From Candidatus Kapaibacterium sp. (lineage in GTDB: Bacteria; Bacteroidota; Ignavibacteria; Kapaibacteriales; Kapaibacteriaceae): a stretch of 64,000 nucleotides of DNA. Of this stretch, positions 195 to 63,810 are shown piece after piece. A model generated the notes under the pieces. That model searched no databases and was not told the DNA's origin. It saw only the letters and a program-made list of their open reading frames with translations. The translations under genes were made by a program, and so were the position numbers. Within the stretch, counting starts at the first letter, position 1. Each line of letters begins with the position of its first letter. The stretch covers positions 178-64,177 of the forward strand of contig VEQR01000003.1 of NCBI GenBank assembly GCA_018883125.1, given 5' to 3'.

Positions 195-220
195 GAAAAG
201 ACTCCCGATATTGTGTGATT

Positions 221-811
221 ATGATCGCACAGCTCACAGGCCTTGTTGCCCACAAAGACGCTATGGACGTCGTCATCGACTGTCAAGGTGTAGGCTATGC
301 CGTCAGCGTATCGCTGACCACTGCTGATATAGTGCCGAATGTGGGCGATCGCGTGACTCTCTACACGATCCTTGCCGTGCGAGAAGATGCCATGCAGCTC
401 TTTGGGTTCGCCAGCACGGCAGAGCGTGCTATGTTCACGCTGCTAACGTCGATCCAGGGCATCGGTGGCAAAACTGCGCTGGGCATCTTGTCGACCGCCT
501 CCATTGCAGACCTTCGAAAGGCTGTGGCAACCGGTAACGTGGCTGCCCTGCAACGTCTGCCCGGCATCGGCAAGAAGACGGCCGAACGCCTCGTGGTCGA
601 ACTCCGTGAAAAGGTCATCGCCATCGTGCCGGAAGGAGCCCCAACGGCCGACATCCCATCGACCCGCGCCACCGAAGACGCCATCAGCGCACTGATGGCC
701 CTGGGCTTTGCCCGCACCGCGGCCGAACGCTCCGTGGCCACCGCCGTCTCAGCCGACCCATCGCTGGTGGACTCGCCGGAGCAACTCATCCGCGCCGCAC
801 TCAGGAGCTAA
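221..811 (+). CDS. ruvA: Holliday junction branch migration protein RuvA
   Basis: MIAQLTGLV...DCQGVGY...LYT...REDAMQLFGF...ERAMFTLLTSIQGIGGKTALGILS matches the RuvA N-terminal OB fold plus HhH motifs. The ATG is at 221; the track starts at a GTG at 215. Confidence 0.9.
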   Translation: MIAQLTGLVAHKDAMDVVIDCQGVGYAVSVSLTTADIVPNVGDRVTLYTILAVREDAMQLFGFASTAERAMFTLLTSIQGIGGKTALGILSTASIADLRKAVATGNVAALQRLPGIGKKTAERLVVELREKVIAIVPEGAPTADIPSTRATEDAISALMALGFARTAAERSVATAVSADPSLVDSPEQLIRAALRS

Positions 812-816
812 GAGCG

Positions 817-939
817 CCGCTTCGCGGCGGGAAGTCTGCGACGGGACGCTGGCGCGGGAAGCCGCTTCGCGGCGGGAAGTCTGCGACGGGACGCTTGCGA
901 CGGGAAGCCGCTTCGCGGTGGGAAGTCTGCGACGGGAAG
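817..939. repeat. GC-rich tandem array with a 9-bp sub-period; 45-bp higher-order unit CCGCTTCGCGGCGGGAAG-TCTGCGACGGGACGCTGGCGCGGGAAG, about 2.7 copies
   Basis: Direct reading shows GGGAAG recurring at spacings of 27, 18, 27, 18 and 15 nt. The array starts 6 nt after the ruvA stop and ends 2 nt before the stop of the minus-strand gene at 942. Confidence 0.95.
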
Positions 940-941
940 CG

Positions 942-1373
942 CTATTTGTTCTTTGGCGTTATTGTTCTCCACGCTCGACGTTTGGCGATTCGCTCTCGGA
1001 ATGGCCCCTGATAGTTTGGTTCTCGTTCCATTTGTGCATTTGCCAGCTCAATGATCCCGATGGAAAGCTGCTTGCACTTTTGAATCAGTTTCCGATGTAG
1101 CTCCTCGTCGATGATGCCGCGGTTTAGAGCCCTATCAAGACAATTCAGAGTCTCTTGCGTCGAACCTTCAGCATACATGTAGAGCTGCAGTCGTTCCCCG
1201 ATTGCCACACGTCCGTATCCTTCAGCAATGTTGTTGGAAATCGAATCAGCAGCTCTCACAATCTGTTGGCCGAGTGTTCTCTTATGGAACTCCGGCCAGT
1301 TACAGACGAGGTTGGACACGGCATCAGAAAGATCAGTGGCGATCCCATATATGCGAAGTGATCGTATCGACAT
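942..1373 (-). CDS. Four-helix-bundle protein of the 23S rRNA intervening-sequence protein family (TIGR02436 / PF05635-like, Avd-related fold)
   Basis: From the internal ATG (cat at 1371-1373) the product is 143 aa: MSIRSLRIYGIATDLSDAVSNLVCNWPEFHKRTLGQQIVRAADSISNNIAEGYGRV...YMYAEGSTQETLNCLDRA. It carries the family signature Q..RAa.SI..NIAEG...GS..E. The upstream part of track ORF 942..1820 is translated repeat (REAAS)n, which I discard. Confidence 0.8.
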   Translation of the reverse strand: MSIRSLRIYGIATDLSDAVSNLVCNWPEFHKRTLGQQIVRAADSISNNIAEGYGRVAIGERLQLYMYAEGSTQETLNCLDRALNRGIIDEELHRKLIQKCKQLSIGIIELANAQMEREPNYQGPFRERIAKRRAWRTITPKNK

Positions 1374-1438
1374 GATTCGGTCTCCCTTTTTGTGCCCTAG
1401 TGCAAGAACGACCGCGGAACGTGACACCCAACCATAAG

Positions 1439-1600
1439 CGCCGCGAAGCGGCTTCCCGCGCCAGCTTCCCGCCGCGCAGCGGCTTCCCGTCGCAGACTTC
1501 CCGCTGCAAGCTTCCCGCCGCGAAGCGGCTTCCCGCCGCGAAGCGGCTTCCCGCCGCGAAGCGGCTTCCCGCCGCGAAGCGGCTTCCCGCTGCAAGCGCC
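1439..1600. repeat. GC-rich tandem array, unit CTTCCCGCCGCGAAGCGG (18 bp), which is the reverse complement of the 817-939 unit
   Basis: Direct reading shows four perfect consecutive 18-mers at about 1511-1582 plus diverged units. CTTCCCGTCGCAGA is the reverse complement of TCTGCGACGGGAAG in the left array. The array ends about 22 nt before the ATG at 1623. Confidence 0.95.
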
Positions 1601-1622
1601 CCACGCAGTATCTTCGCACATC

Positions 1623-2705
1623 ATGTGGAGATACCTGCTTAAGCGCATTGCGCTGTTCTTGCCAACACTCGTGATCATCACGATCATTTCGTTCGCCGTT
1701 AGCCGTCTGGCACCGGGAGATCCGGCCGCTGCAAAGGTGGGCCAAGGGTCGGATGGGAGCATGGGTGGACGCAGCACACTGAACGAGAAGACGATTGAAC
1801 TCATCCGTAAGCAGTGGCACCTGGATAAGCCGATCTGGCAGCAGTATATGATCTGGACAGGGGGCTTGCTGTGCTTCGATATGACCGAGGTATTTACCGA
1901 AAAGGGTACAAACTGGTCGGTAGCCTCGTTTACCGGACGTCCGGACTTCGGAAAGTCATTCATTGACAACCGTCCGGTGTTTGACAAGATGATCGAGCGT
2001 GTGCCCGTGACGCTGATCATGAACCTGCTGGCCATCATCATTGCCTACTCGATCGCCGTCCCGCTCGGTATCTACAGTTCCACGCATCCGGGGACGACCA
2101 CTGATAGGGTGACGACATTCATTCTGTTTGCGATGTACTCGCTACCCGTGTTCTGGATCGGCACGCTTGCCCTGACGTTTCTGGCTAACCCCGAGTTCGT
2201 CTCCATCTTCCCGTCAAGCGGACTACGCTCTCCGGCCTTTAGTGCGAACTGGTCTGCATGGAAGAAGCTCGCTGACTATTCGTGGCACCTTGCCTTGCCC
2301 CTTCTCGTGTACACATACGCCGATTTTGCCTTCATCTCGCGTCAGATGCGCTCATCGATGCTTGAAGTCATCCGTCAGGATTATATCCGAACCGCGCGCG
2401 CAAAGGGGCTGAGTGAGCGTACGGTCATCTACCGGCATGCACTGCGCAATGCCCTTATTCCGCTCATCACGCTCGTGGCCGCGCTTATTCCGAATCTGAT
2501 TGGGGGCTCGGTGATCATCGAGTCGATCTTCTCGATCCCCGGCATGGGCGAACTTTCCTTCCGCGCGCTGATCTCCCGAGACTATCCGATGATCATGGCC
2601 GTGTTCACCGTGTCGGCTGTGCTGACGCTTGTCGGCATGCTCGTTGCGGATTCGTTGTATGCCCTTGTCGATCCGCGCATCTCGTTTGGGAAGAAGTCGT
2701 CATGA
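1623..2705 (+). CDS. ABC transporter permease (oligopeptide/dipeptide type, DppB/OppB-like)
   Basis: The N-terminus MWRYLLKRIALFLPTLVIITIISFAVSRLAPGDP is the classic OppB/DppB start. The BPD_transp_1 region reads IRTARAKGLSERTVIYRHALRNALIPLIT. Confidence 0.85.
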   Translation: MWRYLLKRIALFLPTLVIITIISFAVSRLAPGDPAAAKVGQGSDGSMGGRSTLNEKTIELIRKQWHLDKPIWQQYMIWTGGLLCFDMTEVFTEKGTNWSVASFTGRPDFGKSFIDNRPVFDKMIERVPVTLIMNLLAIIIAYSIAVPLGIYSSTHPGTTTDRVTTFILFAMYSLPVFWIGTLALTFLANPEFVSIFPSSGLRSPAFSANWSAWKKLADYSWHLALPLLVYTYADFAFISRQMRSSMLEVIRQDYIRTARAKGLSERTVIYRHALRNALIPLITLVAALIPNLIGGSVIIESIFSIPGMGELSFRALISRDYPMIMAVFTVSAVLTLVGMLVADSLYALVDPRISFGKKSS

Positions 2706-3794: not shown

Positions 3795-3960
3795 ACGAGA
3801 GACGAGAGACAAGAGACAAGAGACGAGAGACGGATCGTCCTTAATAGCCCCGGGCCTTGGCCCGGGGAACAAGAGACAAGAGACGGATCGTCCTTAATAG
3901 CCCCGGGCCTTGGCCCGGGGAACGAGAGACGAGAGACGGCAGCGTAATCAGTCATCAGTC
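3795..3960. repeat. Composite array: (G/A)AGAGAC heptamers plus two copies of a 53-bp module containing the hairpin CCCCGGGCCTTGGCCCGGGG (3848-3867 and 3901-3920), followed by a short GTCATCA stub
   Basis: Direct reading shows a hairpin-to-hairpin spacing of exactly 53 bp. The module is AAGAGACAAGAGACGGATCGTCCTTAATAG-hairpin-AAC. Confidence 0.95.
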
Positions 3961-18196: not shown

Positions 18197-18256
18197 TACC
18201 TGAATTACTGAATTACTGAATTACTGAGTTACTGAATTACTGAGTTACTGAATTAC
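18197..18256. repeat. 8-mer tandem array TTACTGA(A/G), about 7.5 units
   Basis: Direct reading shows it starts 2 nt after the TAG stop at 18192-18194. Confidence 0.95.
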
Positions 18257-18381: not shown

Positions 18382-18600
18382 TCATTCGGCGTTGTCATCC
18401 AGCAGGTCCCGTACCTTTCGGTTGAAAATGATAGAAATGCGCACGAGCACATCCAGGGTAGGGTTTTCTTTCCCCAGTTCCAGACGTGAGATGTAGTCGG
18501 AACTGAGCTTCACCTCGGCGGCCAGCATCTCCTGTGTCCATTTCATGCTCTGCCGGTGGCGCCGAACATTCCGACCTATTACTCTGCTTTCCTCACGCAT
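18382..18600 (-). CDS. XRE-family helix-turn-helix transcriptional regulator (72 aa)
   Basis: IGRNVRRHRQSMKWTQEMLAAEVKLSSDYISRLELGKENPTLDVLVRISIIF is a canonical HTH_3 domain. Confidence 0.8.
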   Translation of the reverse strand: MREESRVIGRNVRRHRQSMKWTQEMLAAEVKLSSDYISRLELGKENPTLDVLVRISIIFNRKVRDLLDDNAE

Positions 18601-18710: not shown

Positions 18711-18837
18711 CGTCATCAGTCATCAGTCATCAGTCATCAGTCATCAGTCATCAGTCATCAGTCATCAGTCATCAGTCATCAGTCATCAGTCATCAGTCAT
18801 CAGTCATCAGTCATCAGTCATCAGTCATCAGTCATCC
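18711..18837. repeat. Heptamer tandem array GTCATCA: 17 perfect copies plus 1 variant
   Basis: Direct reading shows it ends 28 nt upstream of the ATG at 18866. Confidence 0.98.
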
Positions 18838-18865
18838 GTCCTGTGAGACTCGTACTTTTGCGTCC

Positions 18866-20973: not shown

Positions 20974-22494
20974 ATGGTTAAGCTGTCTGCAGTGCTCTCG
21001 GCACTTTCTCAGCGCATCTCCATGCAGATGCATCAAGAGCCCGATACCGTGGCGATACATGACGTCACAACGGATTCGCGCCTCGTCACACCGGGGACGA
21101 TCTTCGTTGCGATCGCGGGTACGAACTTCGACGGACACAACGCTGTGAGCGATGCCATCGCTCGGGGCGCTGCGGCAGTCGTGGTGGAGCGGGAACCAGA
21201 GAGCCCCCTAAGCATTCCGTCGATCACCGTTAAGGATTCCCGGAAGGCCTTCGCCGAGATCGTTGACCACGTGTTTGATCACCCCAGCCGTCCACTTCGG
21301 ATGTTTGGGGTGACCGGAACCAATGGCAAGACTACCTGCGCCACCCTCCTTGAGCAGATGTTTACGCTGGAAGGTCAGCGAGTCGGTTTCATCGGCACCA
21401 CCGGCAACCGGTATGGTGGACGCGAATACACCACGGAGTATTCCACGCCTCACGCACGCCAACTTGCCGAGCTGTTTCTTGCCATGCGCAGCGAATCAGT
21501 GGACACCGTCTGCATGGAGGTTAGCTCCCATGCCCTTTCGCAGCATCGTGTTCTGGGCATCGATTACCGAGGTGCGATCTTCACGAATCTTACTCGGGAT
21601 CATCTCGATTACCATGGCACCATGCAGGAGTATGCACGGTGCAAGAAGCTCCTCTTCGACGGACTCTCTGAGTCGGCCTCTGCTGTGCTCTGGGGCGACT
21701 CCGAATGGACGCCGTACATGAAGCGCGGATGTGTGGCTCGAAACGTTATCACCGTTGGGAAAGGGGCTGATAATCACGTCCGTGTGACGGATGTTCAGCT
21801 CTCGCTCACGGGTACCACGTTCACCCTGCAGCGCATGAGAGCCGATGCGGTGCTCGTGCCCGAGCAATGCACGATCGCTACCCGTCTTCTTGGCGAGTTC
21901 AATGTTGCCAATGCCGCGCTCGTTGCCGTTCTCTGCTTGCTTGATGGTATGTCTGCAGACCATGTTGTTGCACACATGGCGCAGGTGAGCGGTCCTAAAG
22001 GGCGCATGGAGGTTGTCAATATCCCCCACGGTCCAACGGCCATCGTGGATTACGCACACACTCCTGATGCCCTGGAGAGCGTTCTCGGCGTACTGCGCGG
22101 TCTGCATGTTTCCGCCGGATCTGCAGGCAAGATCCACGTCGTCTTCGGCTGCGGGGGCGATAGAGATAGGGGTAAGCGATCGGAAATGGGGCGGATTGCC
22201 TCGGAAATGGCCGACCACGTCTACGTTACCAGCGACAATCCTCGAACAGAATCACCGGCGGACATCATCGCTCACATCATGGGCGGCATCGACGGTCCGC
22301 ACCGCCCGCGCGTCACCGTCATCGAAGACCGACGTCAAGCCATTCATGCCGCACTCAATGCGGCTTCTCACGGCGATGTTGTGCTGGTCGCTGGTAAGGG
22401 GCACGAAGAAAATCAGATCATCGGCACTGAACGCCTGCCGTTTAGCGATATGGCAGAGGTTAGGAAGAGAATTACTGAATTACTGAATTACTGA
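20974..22494 (+). CDS. murE: UDP-N-acetylmuramoyl-L-alanyl-D-glutamate--2,6-diaminopimelate ligase
   Basis: VTTDSRLVTPGTIFVAIAG, GVTGTNGKTT, DYAHTPDAL and LVAGKGHE are Mur ligase / MurE motifs. The last 7 codons plus the stop (ITELLNY*) are encoded by the 8-mer array. Confidence 0.92.
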   Translation: MVKLSAVLSALSQRISMQMHQEPDTVAIHDVTTDSRLVTPGTIFVAIAGTNFDGHNAVSDAIARGAAAVVVEREPESPLSIPSITVKDSRKAFAEIVDHVFDHPSRPLRMFGVTGTNGKTTCATLLEQMFTLEGQRVGFIGTTGNRYGGREYTTEYSTPHARQLAELFLAMRSESVDTVCMEVSSHALSQHRVLGIDYRGAIFTNLTRDHLDYHGTMQEYARCKKLLFDGLSESASAVLWGDSEWTPYMKRGCVARNVITVGKGADNHVRVTDVQLSLTGTTFTLQRMRADAVLVPEQCTIATRLLGEFNVANAALVAVLCLLDGMSADHVVAHMAQVSGPKGRMEVVNIPHGPTAIVDYAHTPDALESVLGVLRGLHVSAGSAGKIHVVFGCGGDRDRGKRSEMGRIASEMADHVYVTSDNPRTESPADIIAHIMGGIDGPHRPRVTVIEDRRQAIHAALNAASHGDVVLVAGKGHEENQIIGTERLPFSDMAEVRKRITELLNY

Positions 22495-22621
22495 AGTACT
22501 GAATTACTGAAGTACTGAAGTACTGAAGTACTGAATTACTGAAGTACTGAAGTACAGAATTACTGAGGTACTGAATTACTGAAGTACAGAGGTACTGAAG
22601 TACAGAGGTACTGAATTACTG
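22471..22621. repeat. 8-mer tandem array, 19 units (ATTACTGA, AGTACTGA, AGTACAGA, GGTACTGA); left arm of an inverted pair
   Basis: Direct reading gives the unit order A A A B A B B B A B C A D A C D C D A. It begins inside the last codons of murE. Confidence 0.97.
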
Positions 22622-22629
22622 ACACAGAA

Positions 22630-22671
22630 AAACCGCAAGACGTGGGACAAACTCTCCACACCTTGCGGTTT
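22630..22671. terminator. Putative bidirectional intrinsic terminator hairpin (AAACCGCAAG ... CTTGCGGTTT)
   Basis: It has a 10-bp perfect stem (22630-22639 / 22662-22671) and a 22-nt loop. It is followed by a T-containing tract on the + strand (GATGGTCTTTATTTGTT) and by TTTTTCTGTGT on the - strand. It lies between the convergent genes murE and rpsU. Confidence 0.55.
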
Positions 22672-22734
22672 GATGGTCTTTATTTGTTCCCAAGACGGCC
22701 AAGCTAGCTGTCTTGGTTGATGAAACAAGTGGCG

Positions 22735-22860
22735 AAGTACTTCAGTAATTTAGTACTTCAGTACTTCAGTACTTCAGTAATTCAGTACTTCAGTAATTCA
22801 GTAATTCAGTAATTCAGTACTTCAGTAATTCAGTACTTCAGTAATTCAGTACTTCAGTAC
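22735..22860. repeat. 8-mer tandem array TCAGTAAT / TCAGTACT, about 16 units; right arm, the reverse complement of the 22471-22621 units
   Basis: Direct reading shows it abuts the rpsU stop codon (22861-22863). Confidence 0.97.
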
Positions 22861-23055
22861 TTATTCTTGTTCCATTTGTGCGCGGTGCTGACGACGCGCA
22901 GCCTTGAGACGAGACATGCGACGCTCGACGCTTGGCTTCACAAAGAAAGCGCGCTTCTTGAATTCGCGGAGAACGCCGGAGCGCTCATATTTCTTCTTGA
23001 AACGGCGAAGGGCACGGTCAATCGACTCATTGCTTTGTACGGTGACTCCGATCAC
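22861..23055 (-). CDS. rpsU: 30S ribosomal protein S21
   Basis: VTVQSNESIDRALRRFKKKYERSGVLREFKKRAFFVKPSVERR is canonical bS21. It has a GTG start. Confidence 0.92.
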   Translation of the reverse strand: MIGVTVQSNESIDRALRRFKKKYERSGVLREFKKRAFFVKPSVERRMSRLKAARRQHRAQMEQE

Positions 23056-54051: not shown

Positions 54052-54078
54052 AAGAGCGCAAGTTACGGATAACGGGGT

Positions 54079-54140
54079 ACTGATGACTGATGACTGATGA
54101 CTGATTACTGATGACTGATTACTGATTACTGATTACTGAA
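54079..54140. repeat. Heptamer array ACTGATG / ACTGATT, about 9 units (left arm)
   Basis: Direct reading places it 28 nt upstream of the lepA start, in the divergent intergenic region. Confidence 0.95.
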
Positions 54141-54223
54141 TCCCCTTGGGCCCTCAAAGGGCGAGGAGTGCCCAGGATGAAGCCCGGTTAACCAGCCAGC
54201 AACATTCTGAGGAAAATGGTAGC

Positions 54224-54285
54224 AATCAGTAATCAGTAATCAGTAATCAGTAATCAGTAATCAGTCATCAGTAATTGGTCATCAG
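54224..54285. repeat. Heptamer array AATCAGT x6, then CATCAGT and related units (right arm, reverse complement of the left arm)
   Basis: Direct reading shows AATCAGT is the reverse complement of ACTGATT. Confidence 0.95.
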
Positions 54286-56923: not shown

Positions 56924-57195
56924 GTTACGAGAGACGAGAGACAGATCGTCGTTAATAGCCCCGGGCCTTGGCCCGGGGTACGAGAGACGAGAGACAGATC
57001 GTCGTTAATAGCCCCGGGCCTTGGCCCGGGGTACGAGAGACGAGAGACAGATCGTCGTTAATAGCCCCGGGCCTTGGCCCGGGGTACAAGAGACGAGAGA
57101 CAGATCGTCGTTAATAGCCCCGGGCCTTGGCCCGGGGTACAAGAGACGACAGACAGATCGTCGTTAAAAGCCCCGGGCCTTGGCCCGGGGATAGC
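56924..57195. repeat. Five tandem copies of a 53-bp module: (G/A)AGAGACGAGAGACA-GATCGTCGTTAATAG-CCCCGGGCCTTGGCCCGGGG-TAC
   Basis: Direct reading places the hairpins at 56959-56978, 57012-57031, 57065-57084, 57118-57137 and 57171-57190, an exact 53-bp period. The copies are nearly identical. Confidence 0.97.
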
Positions 57196-58694: not shown

Positions 58695-58926
58695 TTACGG
58701 AGCGTAAGAATTACTGAAGTACGGAATTACGGAAGTACTGAAGTACGGAATTACGGAAGTACTGAAGTACGGAATTACGGAAGTACTGAATTACGGAAGT
58801 ACTGAGTTACTGAATGACGGAATTACGGAGCTCAATGCTAATTACGTAATTAAGTAATCAAGTAATTGAGTACTTCCGTAATTCAGTACTTCCGTAATTC
58901 AGTACTTCCGTAATTCAGTAATTCGC
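58695..58926. repeat. 8-mer arrays forming one long imperfect palindrome: the left arm has a 24-bp higher-order unit (TACTGAAG-TACGGAAT-TACGGAAG), the right arm a 16-bp higher-order unit (TACTTCCG-TAATTCAG), with symmetry centre GAGCTC at 58828-58833
   Basis: Direct reading shows it fills essentially the whole spacer between the proS start (58683) and the upstream gene stop (58928). Confidence 0.95.
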
Positions 58927-60756: not shown

Positions 60757-60764
60757 CAATGGAA

Positions 60765-61050
60765 ATTACGGAGTTACTGAGGTATGGAATTACTGAATTA
60801 CTGAATTACTGAATTACTGAATTACTGAATTACGAGAGTTACGAGAGTTACGAGAGTTACGAGAGTTACGAGAGTTACGAGAGTTACAGAGTGACGAGAG
60901 TTACGAGAGTTACAGAGTTAAGGAGGTACTCCAACATTGGTGAGCAACTCCGTAATTCGGTACCTCCGTAATTCAGTACCTCCGTAATTCAGTACCTCCG
61001 TAATTCAGTACCTCCGTAATTCAGTACCTCCGTAATTCAGTACCTCCGTA
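60765..61050. repeat. Composite array: TTACTGAA 8-mers (x5), then TTACGAGAG 9-mers (about 9), a short core, then the 16-bp higher-order unit TACCTCCGTAATTCAG (x6) in inverted orientation
   Basis: Direct reading shows it occupies nearly all of the 304-bp divergent spacer between ruvB and bamD. Confidence 0.96.
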
Positions 61051-61060
61051 ACTTCGAACT

Positions 61061-63557: not shown

Positions 63558-63810
63558 CGAGAGACGAGAGACGAGAGACGAGTGACAAGTGACGAGAGAC
63601 GAGAGACAAGAGACGAGAGACGAGAGACAAGAGACGAGAGACGGGTGGTAGACCCCGCTAATAGCCCCGGGCCTTATTAGCCCCGGGCCTTGGCCCGGGG
63701 TACGAGAGACGAGAGACAAGAGACGAGAGACAAGAGACGAGAGACGAGAGACGAGAGGATACTCCGTAATTCAGTAATTCAGTAATTCAGTAATTCAGTA
63801 ATTCCGTCCC
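63556..63810. repeat. Composite array: GAGAGAC/AAGAGAC heptamers (about 12), a hairpin module (a partial CCCCGGGCC copy plus the full CCCCGGGCCTTGGCCCGGGG at 63680-63699), heptamers (about 8), then CCGTAATT/CAGTAATT 8-mers (about 6)
   Basis: Direct reading shows it fills the entire convergent spacer from the TGA at 63555-63557 to the era stop at 63811-63813. Confidence 0.96.

Follow-up and report, generated by a model that had tools for sequence, protein, structure and literature searches.

A four-helix-bundle gene of the PF05635/TIGR02436 family, encoding 143 amino acids (aa), is bracketed by two tandem repeat arrays set in inverted orientation (the arms) in the spacer between ruvA and a permease gene of Candidatus Kapaibacterium sp. 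The cassette resides in a stretch of 64,000 nucleotides (assembly GCA_018883125.1, contig VEQR01000003.1, positions 178 to 64,177), which is referred to as a whole as the window. The armed layout is real, and is specific to the PF05635 gene family. An original prediction had recognised in the cassette the build of the intervening sequences (IVS) of 23S rRNA, a stem plus a four-helix-bundle gene, placed outside rRNA. That build does recur, in 10 of 10 sampled loci of the subfamily to which the window gene belongs and in 49-70% of 77 family members, versus 0.5-1.8% of neighbouring genes; the accompanying suggestion that gene-less, short-core inverted pairs of the window are empty versions of the cassette is unsupported by the sequence of their units. 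Since the layout has been found around about half of the sampled relatives in many phyla, it looks like a widespread gene-plus-repeat module.

Armed genes in the PF05635 family

One genome per species was scanned with an alignment of 20 family members as query, and 80 loci were collected by protein similarity alone. They span Bacteroidota, Verrucomicrobiota, Patescibacteria, Desulfobacterota, Lentisphaerota and other groups. The upstream flank of each gene was scored against the reverse complement of the downstream flank, with the following outcome:

PF05635 genes (n=77): score >=18 in 49%, score >=14 in 70%
Other genes of the same loci (n=435): score >=18 in 0.46%, score >=14 in 1.8%

The scores of the two sets differ sharply (Mann-Whitney p = 1.9e-33), and the maximum score reached by 419 shifted controls was 17. 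An OsmC-family gene (L087, 5139-5555, score 27) is the sole non-PF05635 gene among the 435 to have clear array flanks independent of an adjacent cassette; L043 4371-5354 scores 29, but one of the flanks is the 3' arm of the cassette next to it. Blind pairing of the arrays detected by Tandem Repeats Finder (TRF) yielded 84 inverted pairs, 50 of which enclose a PF05635 gene, and 26 of which are short-core, the window contributing 4 of these. Three of the long-core pairs obtained in this way enclose further, unselected PF05635 genes (L022, L091 and L023, the last one borderline at 33.4 bits). Arms of the family are nearly always tandem arrays of 7-9-nt units, among which GTCATTG, GTTCATTG, GTTAATTG, GTTTATTA, AGTCAGG and AGATTAAG, and the stop codon of the gene often touches, or lies within, the 3' array. 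PF05635 genes are co-directional with both neighbours in 60 of 73 cases, and with the upstream gene in 75 of 80 (baseline 64%), which indicates that the typical cassette sits inside a transcription unit. The antisense placement (-,-) of the window gene is found in 2 of the 73 loci, the window included.

Gene-less pairs sharing the unit of the local PF05635 arms have been identified at five loci (L055, L021, L026, L039 and L036). As an example, four gene-less inverted GTAGTTG pairs are found at L055 (1419-6588), in an Opitutaceae metagenome-assembled genome, less than 5 kb from a PF05635 gene armed with GTAGTTG.

The layout is especially neat in Xanthomonas campestris, where the orthologue of the crystallised XCC0516 (L180, 1930-2372) has accB and accC as neighbours, one on either side and both in the same direction as itself. 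The gene has a GTG start at 1941, its first five codons lying within the 5' array, and an annotated ATG downstream, at 2001. Four GGGAATC-type units make up the 5' array and four units the 3' array, which stops at the start codon of accC. The two arms mirror each other unit by unit, variant units included, at 26 of 30 positions; the mismatches, four in all, recur at exactly every seventh base. About 186 GGGAATC arrays, 70-75 of them inverted pairs, have been described in X. campestris and linked to no gene, within a survey of heptamer and long simple-sequence repeats (LSSR) in intergenic spacers which also reported GGGGA(C/T)T in Nostoc (Rehm et al. 2015, PMC4692102). Full-text searches of the literature retrieved no account of inverted tandem arrays around PF05635 genes other than in rRNA. 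The legend to Fig. 6B of Altae-Tran 2023 (PMC10910872) lists '23S rRNA IVP' among proteins linked to CRISPR adaptation modules or to CRISPR-like repeats; flanking tandem arrays could contribute to these associations.

Anatomy of the cassette and of its protein

The components of the locus, and the analyses by which they were defined, are as follows:

ruvA, 215..811, plus strand: upstream host gene (Pfam RuvA_N, HHH_5, RuvA_C)
Left arm, 816..940: 3' arm relative to the four-helix-bundle gene (TRF, repeat families, unit dissection)
PF05635/TIGR02436 four-helix-bundle gene, 942..1373, minus strand: 143 aa (hidden Markov model matches, PDB profile, AlphaFold2 model, Foldseek)
Leader, 1374..1438, minus strand: 65 nt from the 5' arm to the ATG (motif TGTCACGTT, Shine-Dalgarno-like GGGAG)
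Right arm, 1439..1605: 5' arm relative to the four-helix-bundle gene (TRF, unit dissection)
ABC (Opp/Dpp-type) permease gene, 1623..2705, plus strand: first downstream host gene (Pfam BPD_transp_1)

The gene on the minus strand at 942-1373 had been assigned to this family from the sequence alone, and the assignment is sound. Both PF05635 (E 3.1e-22, 79.2 bits, cut-off 33.8) and TIGR02436 (1e-20, 74 bits, cut-off 24) are matched above the curated cut-offs. Gene calls and Pfam domains likewise agree with its location, wedged between ruvA and the permease gene, both on the opposite strand, and the left arm, said to end 2 nt from the stop codon (942-944), ends 1-2 nt from it. The ruvA stop codon is 4 nt away from the left arm, the right arm is about 20 nt away from the permease start, and the spacer is thus wholly occupied by the cassette. 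UPF0102, ruvA, two permease genes and a HisA-like gene are the neighbours within about 4 kb. The permease leader (GTATCTTCGCA..ATG) is kept in L001, L173 and L177. As only about 20 nt of kept leader precede the permease ATG, either transcription from ruvA would cross the cassette, or the permease promoter would lie inside the arm.

One set of units, in shuffled order, makes up both arms. The left arm had been described as a plain array of an 18-mer, and is rather made of 2.7 copies of a 45-nt composite period (96% matches by TRF), which combines three unit types of 18, 14 and 13 nt. Read on the strand of the gene, each unit features a mini-hairpin of the GCGAAGC type, with a GAA or GCA loop, followed by CTTCCC or GTCCC. 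The right arm (TRF period 18, 9.7 copies) includes about 10 units of 13-18 nt, in which GGGAAG precedes the mini-hairpin (CCGC-TTC-GCGG and variants). The units CCGCTTCGCGGCGGGAAG and CTTCCCGCCGCGAAGCGG are exact reverse complements, as had been claimed. Allowing at most 3 mismatches, the 18-mer occurs 8 times in the 64 kb, always within the two arms, versus 0.09 occurrences expected. The longest inverted match between the arms spans 90 nt at 81% identity, and perfect blocks reach 26 nt. The notion that the arms could pair into a stem is favoured by the folds predicted for the region 800-1620, at about -400 kcal/mol on either strand (-403 kcal/mol, z -10.3, for the minus-strand RNA; -400 kcal/mol, z -15.8, for the plus-strand RNA); the predicted inter-arm duplex reaches -237 kcal/mol, versus -97 and -44 kcal/mol for the arms folded singly. 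What has to be corrected is the picture of the arms as perfect mirror images, as their pairing is imperfect and the order of units is shuffled.

The subfamily was examined at the window, at L001-L010 (the orthologue of a second species at the same junction, 22 contigs), L173/L174, L175, L011-L015 and L178. Inverted arrays were present at all ten loci sampled, including the unrelated sites L011-L015 and L178; family members in related Kapabacteria carry arms as well. Subfamily arms range from about 90 to about 480 nt. On the strand of the gene, the 5' unit opens with an anchor, G[GA]GA[CA], after which comes a short palindromic stretch looped by TTC or TGC; the complementary 3' unit has GCGAAGC-type loops, either GAA or GCA. 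Stems of the palindromes vary by locus and yet stay palindromic (CCGC/GCGG, TTGGC/GCCAA, CTCGC/GCGAG, ACGCC/GGCGT). In turn, the spacing of units changes from 7 nt at L178, where the unit is a plain GGGACTA, to 12 nt at L014, and up to 18 nt. The anchor is kept in all subfamily loci but L011, and the same subfamily and anchor have been found in both Kapabacteria and Verrucomicrobiota. Both arms of one locus share a set of units, and sets differ among loci: the arms evolve in concert. A G-quadruplex reading of the GGG anchors was considered, and is weakened by most units of L012 and L015, which read GAGAC.

Upstream of the gene, the leader carries the motif TGTCACGTT (plus-strand AACGTGACA, 1418-1426), about 45-55 nt from the start codon, and a Shine-Dalgarno-like GGGAG at 1382-1386, 8 nt before the start codon. 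The motif is kept in 9 subfamily loci despite differing arms, the proteins being about 55-94% identical (alignment A2), and is a candidate promoter element or operator. Compared with the sigma-70 and the Bacteroidota -33/-7 consensus, TGTCACGTT fits neither, a sigma-70 scan of the leader gave no convincing promoter, and the sole terminator-like site is weak.

A PDB profile built from the window protein and its relatives matches XCC0516 (2gsc, E 4.6e-16) and BT_0352 (2rld). The AlphaFold2 model, which is that of a monomer (predicted local distance difference test score 94.4), features four helices and a fifth, C-terminal one (residues 125-141). By Foldseek, the model superimposes on 2gsc with a template modelling (TM) score of 0.92 and a root-mean-square deviation of 1.1 A, on 2rld with TM 0.86, and on Avd (4dwl) with TM 0.73-0.83; relative to the S23p-type structures Avd is a weak match (E 0.1-0.5). 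The protein is basic (isoelectric point, pI, 9.5; 11.5 for the C-terminal tail), and the fifth, basic helix carries the motif YxGPFRERIAKRRAW, shared at the C-terminus by the subfamily proteins, which are 139-167 aa long (alignment A1). Nonsynonymous to synonymous substitutions (dN/dS) are at a ratio of 0.05 between the orthologues L001 and L174, a value equal to that of ruvA: intact copies of the protein are under strong purifying selection. PADLOC and PHROGs models, which cover anti-phage defence and phage protein libraries, gave no matches.

Additional arrays populate the window. Four short-core inverted pairs (22469-22862, 54078-54275, 58708-58924 and 60764-61051) are made of AT-rich 7-9-nt units (GAAGTACT/AGTACTTC, ACTGATG/AATCAGT and others); their cores, of 9-113 nt, are gene-less, and the pairs occupy whole intergenic spacers, stopping 0-38 nt short of the genes on either side. 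These are the pairs once suggested to be empty cassettes. They are built alike, but their AT-rich units bear no relation to the GC-rich ones of the cassette, and derivation from this cassette is therefore unsupported. Arrays of 53-nt units reside at 3816-3939, 56926-57190 and 63640-63700, and host a GC-rich palindrome (CCCCGGGCCTTGGCCCGGGG) amid runs of ACGAGAG/ACAAGAG heptamers; they look like hairpins similar to repetitive extragenic palindromic (REP) sequences combined with heptamer arrays. Finally, an open reading frame (ORF) encoding an XRE-type helix-turn-helix protein (about 18395-18546, minus strand) lies between non-complementary arrays, (CTGAATTA)n at 18200-18256 and (GTCATCA)x18 at 18712-18840.

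Evolution at the ruvA junction

The comparison of orthologous junctions had been proposed as a way to tell an inserted cassette from an ancestral gene. Four related species have the cassette, one of them in the form of a pseudogene whose arms have shrunk, and a fifth species lacks it. Arm-bearing spacers span 184-244 nt and 174-296 nt between contigs, the protein being 100% identical; arm copy number is hypervariable. In the species of L173/L174, the RuvA of which is 93% identical, the cassette is present, the UPF0102-ruvA-cassette block is inverted relative to the window, and one of the two contigs carries a frameshift in the four-helix-bundle gene. A third array of the same unit type marks the other breakpoint, at the PNPOx-UPF0102 junction (L175 1110-1260, L001 6654-6800). 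As arrays are found at both breakpoints of the inversion, they appear to act as recombination substrates. The species of L175 (RuvA 88%) has the gene order of the window, and its gene lacks the ATG, carries a 1-nt deletion, and is flanked by arms reduced to about 90 and about 30 nt. In the species of L177 (RuvA 85%) neither cassette nor arrays are found, and the spacer is 41 nt long. At the level of 71% identity, L178 (1-470) hosts a subfamily gene and about 24 GGGACTA units beside the second permease gene; L179 (1-470), from another sample and with a RuvA identical to that of L178, hosts a different gene and only 5 units, and the two sequences diverge at the array. In some close relatives the cassette is decaying or lacking.

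Cassette and host-gene divergence are decoupled. Between L001 and L174, the four-helix-bundle gene has a dS of 0.77, host genes one of 1.5-1.6. When the window is compared with either L001 or L174, the dN of this gene is 0.16-0.17, versus 0.03-0.08 for host genes, alongside a change of the anchor from GGGAC to GGGAAG. No target-site duplication was visible when filled and empty junctions were compared, the junctions being too diverged to align. A RuvA scan of metagenome contigs retrieved only distant homologues (identity at most 51%), none with the junction.

Interpretation and relation to known systems

We regard the cassette, with middling confidence, as the non-rRNA counterpart of an ORF-bearing 23S rRNA IVS, a heritable four-helix-bundle gene with inverted arrays housed in an intercistronic spacer. 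According to this view, the arms would pair in the transcript that crosses the cassette to form a long, imperfect stem of roughly 90-160 bp, and the stem would be a substrate of the RNase III type, whereby cassette and host cistrons would be parted, as happens with the rRNA IVS. Complementarity of the arms would be kept mainly at the DNA level, by slippage and by copying between arms. The protein, basic and plausibly oligomeric like Avd and S23p, would bind nucleic acid, most likely its own arms via the G[GA]GA[CA] anchor between mini-hairpins. Metatranscriptome contigs from the phyllosphere are of interest in this respect. At a Pedobacter cassette (L031), some of them run from the upstream gene through the 5' array into the beginning of the ORF, and separate ones connect the ORF to the downstream gene across a 3' array that is shorter by one unit, which is consistent with read-through transcription.

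Several points weigh on the other side. The L031 sequences are assembled contigs, possibly including DNA, and are silent on cleavage. Stable mini-hairpins within the units compete with the long-range pairing of the arms. Because the window gene is antisense to its neighbours, its own mRNA may begin at an internal promoter, and would then hold one arm only. Mismatches between arms exhibit no G.U bias (56 of the coding-strand wobble type versus 61 of the opposite type, and 111 of the transversion type), in a test weakened by ambiguity of the register; with no G.U excess on either strand, complementarity looks kept by DNA-level copying, and less by selection on RNA pairs. The sample of 80 loci was seeded by a NIAEGYGR-type motif, and represents a part of the family. 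For the window, both stem formation and RNase III cleavage are what we infer. When sequencing runs were searched for the window stretch, no RNA run contained it, and DNA runs contained only about 10% of its words.

A possible alternative, which we entertain tentatively and which overlaps with the IVS-like reading, is that protein and repeats form a cognate module. In this case the arrays would be binding sites, the anchor would be read in single-stranded RNA or DNA, mini-hairpins would act as spacers, and pairing of the arms would be secondary. Conservation of the anchor across loci and phyla, next to hairpins that vary, hints that the encoded protein recognises its own arms and fits this hypothesis, as do the compensatory changes in the hairpin stems, the variation in spacing from 7 to 18 nt, and the L178 array, reduced to the plain heptamer GGGACTA. 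The window protein is basic and has an extra basic helix, and its Avd relatives bind nucleic acids. Gene-less pairs carrying the unit of a local PF05635 gene (the five loci mentioned above) could represent further targets, and so could the many copies (~186; PMC4692102) of the unit which flanks the Xanthomonas gene. Divergence of the window protein has moreover been 3-4 times as fast as that of host genes, paralleling the change of its anchor. Yet, a search for residues tracking the anchor type yielded just 2 columns among 8 sequences, an uninformative outcome; the types of unit go with protein clades, and clades go with taxonomy, a pattern explained equally well by co-inheritance; the other arrays of the window have unrelated units, and the anchor is missing in L011.

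A broader formulation is more speculative, and we hold it to be doubtful at present. PF05635 proteins and short tandem arrays might be parts of one genetic system, in which a ring-shaped protein reads anchors repeated over single-stranded RNA or DNA. The 'autonomous' elements would be cassettes, able to colonise operon spacers and 23S rRNA helices alike, and gene-less arrays of the GGGAATC, LSSR and short tandemly repeated repetitive (STRR) types would be either targets or derivatives. Were this true, the role of the IVS ORF and the purpose of bacterial heptamer arrays would share one answer. The S23p proteins of IVS have been without a function for 30 years, and the same holds for the 7-8-nt arrays of cyanobacteria, Bacteroidota and Xanthomonas.

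That the cassette is a mobile DNA element is unlikely. The arms would be terminal inverted repeats, the cassette would move between intergenic sites and rRNA helices, and short-core pairs would be non-autonomous derivatives. Patchy presence in close relatives (none in L177; L178 and L179 differing next to an identical RuvA), unrelated genomic contexts, the occurrence of the same subfamily and anchor in Kapabacteria and Verrucomicrobiota, and the decoupling of cassette and host-gene divergence all speak for mobility. However, neither a transposase nor a recombinase is present, the four-helix-bundle protein has no known catalytic activity, and no target-site duplication was seen. In addition, the unit is confined to this locus within the 64 kb, the position is stable in four species, with decay occurring in situ (L175), and arms differ between copies.

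The arms could also be functionless, neutral by-products of slippage-prone hairpin repeats that expand in palindromic spacers and are copied from one arm to the other by template switching. We deem this quite improbable. Hypervariable copy number, mismatches free of G.U bias, and the many array-filled spacers of this genome favour the hypothesis, as does the nature of the repeats, since mini-hairpins of the GCGAAGC type are exceptionally stable in DNA. Neutrality fails to explain, however, why arms flank PF05635 genes with a frequency about 100 times that seen for the other genes of the same loci, why the anchor is conserved, and why the order of variant units is mirrored in Xanthomonas.

Even less credit can be given to the idea of an invertible, phase-variable segment, in which recombination between the arms would flip the gene. 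The arms are indeed long inverted repeats, the rare antisense orientation (2/73 loci) could be a flipped state, and the UPF0102-ruvA-four-helix-bundle block has opposite orientations in the window and in L173/L174, its breakpoints being marked by arrays; but the orientation is the same in 10 orthologue places among 22 contigs, no recombinase gene lies nearby, and a flip would leave the upstream arm unchanged relative to the gene. A role as the Avd accessory protein of a diversity-generating retroelement (DGR), suggested by the kinship of the PF05635 and Avd folds (Foldseek), can be practically discarded, given the weak structural match (E 0.1-0.5, against the S23p-type structures) and the lack of a reverse transcriptase gene or of a template/variable repeat pair nearby.

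Whichever the mechanism, the locus and its relatives reveal that S23p-type genes and arrays co-occur well beyond chance outside rRNA, and the split of the subfamily repeat into a kept anchor and a variable hairpin points to a recognised element. The accB-XCC0516-accC region of X. campestris makes a tractable system for tests. The nearest published works deal with IVS (Warrier 2016) and with arrays without a gene (Rehm 2015). What the window adds is a GC-rich anchor-plus-hairpin subfamily with an extra helix and a leader motif, the antisense placement, a series of decay in situ, and the Xanthomonas accB-accC example.

Among known proteins, the S23p-type four-helix-bundle homopentamers XCC0516 (2gsc) and BT_0352 (2rld) are the nearest to the window protein in sequence and fold, and differ from it because they lack the fifth basic helix (125-141). 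Avd is a basic, nucleic-acid-binding pentamer acting on structured RNA. Its four-helix-bundle fold (4dwl, 8ube) is related to that of the window protein; unlike the Avd genes of DGRs, the window locus has neither reverse transcriptase nor template/variable repeat pair.

Parallels can also be drawn with REP-associated tyrosine transposases (RAYTs), the genes of which are reportedly flanked by their own REP/REPIN sequences, as is said to have emerged from work by Nunvar in 2010 and by Bertels and Rainey in 2011. In both systems a gene is bracketed in inverted orientation by short repeats which also occur gene-less elsewhere in the genome. In contrast to RAYTs, which are tyrosine transposases of known mechanism, the four-helix-bundle protein is not known to act as an enzyme, and tandem arrays, not single palindromes, make up its arms.

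The LSSR, and the cyanobacterial STRRs reportedly described by Mazel et al. in 1990, bear a resemblance as well. These, too, are tandem units found mainly between co-directional genes, often as convergent inverted pairs, variable in copy number and transcribed. The arms of many PF05635 genes make use of the same unit types (GTCATTG, GGGAATC, GGGACTA), and the (GTCATTG)n arms of many Bacteroidota and Desulfobacterota members are the same repeat as the cyanobacterial STRR2, TTGGTCA. Differently from the published repeats, at the window and at accB-accC of X. campestris the pair encloses a PF05635 gene. Published units are 5-11 nt long, whereas those of the window are 13-18-nt composites with internal hairpins; subfamily relatives have units of 7 nt (L178) and 12 nt (L014).

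The counterpart within rRNA is the ORF-bearing IVS of 23S rRNA in Coxiella and Leptospira. In Coxiella burnetii the S23p-bearing IVS has a 28-bp stem, cut by RNase III at the first of three tandem heptamers, the number of which varies between strains (Warrier et al. 2016, PMC4990558). Both IVS and window cassette feature a PF05635 ORF in the loop of terminal inverted repeats able to form a stem, short tandem repeats of variable copy number in the stem region beside the start codon, a decay-prone ORF, and location inside a host transcript, which for the window is plausible. The cassette resides between ruvA and the permease gene, outside any 23S rRNA helix (9, 25 or 45), and an Rfam scan detected no family, rRNA included, in the window. 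Its arms are 125-165 nt long and composed of 13-18-nt units, versus a 28-bp stem and 7-nt repeats; its gene is antisense to the host genes, and the encoded protein, clearly subject to purifying selection, bears an additional C-terminal helix. Cleavage by RNase III, described for the rRNA element, is predicted for the cassette of the window.

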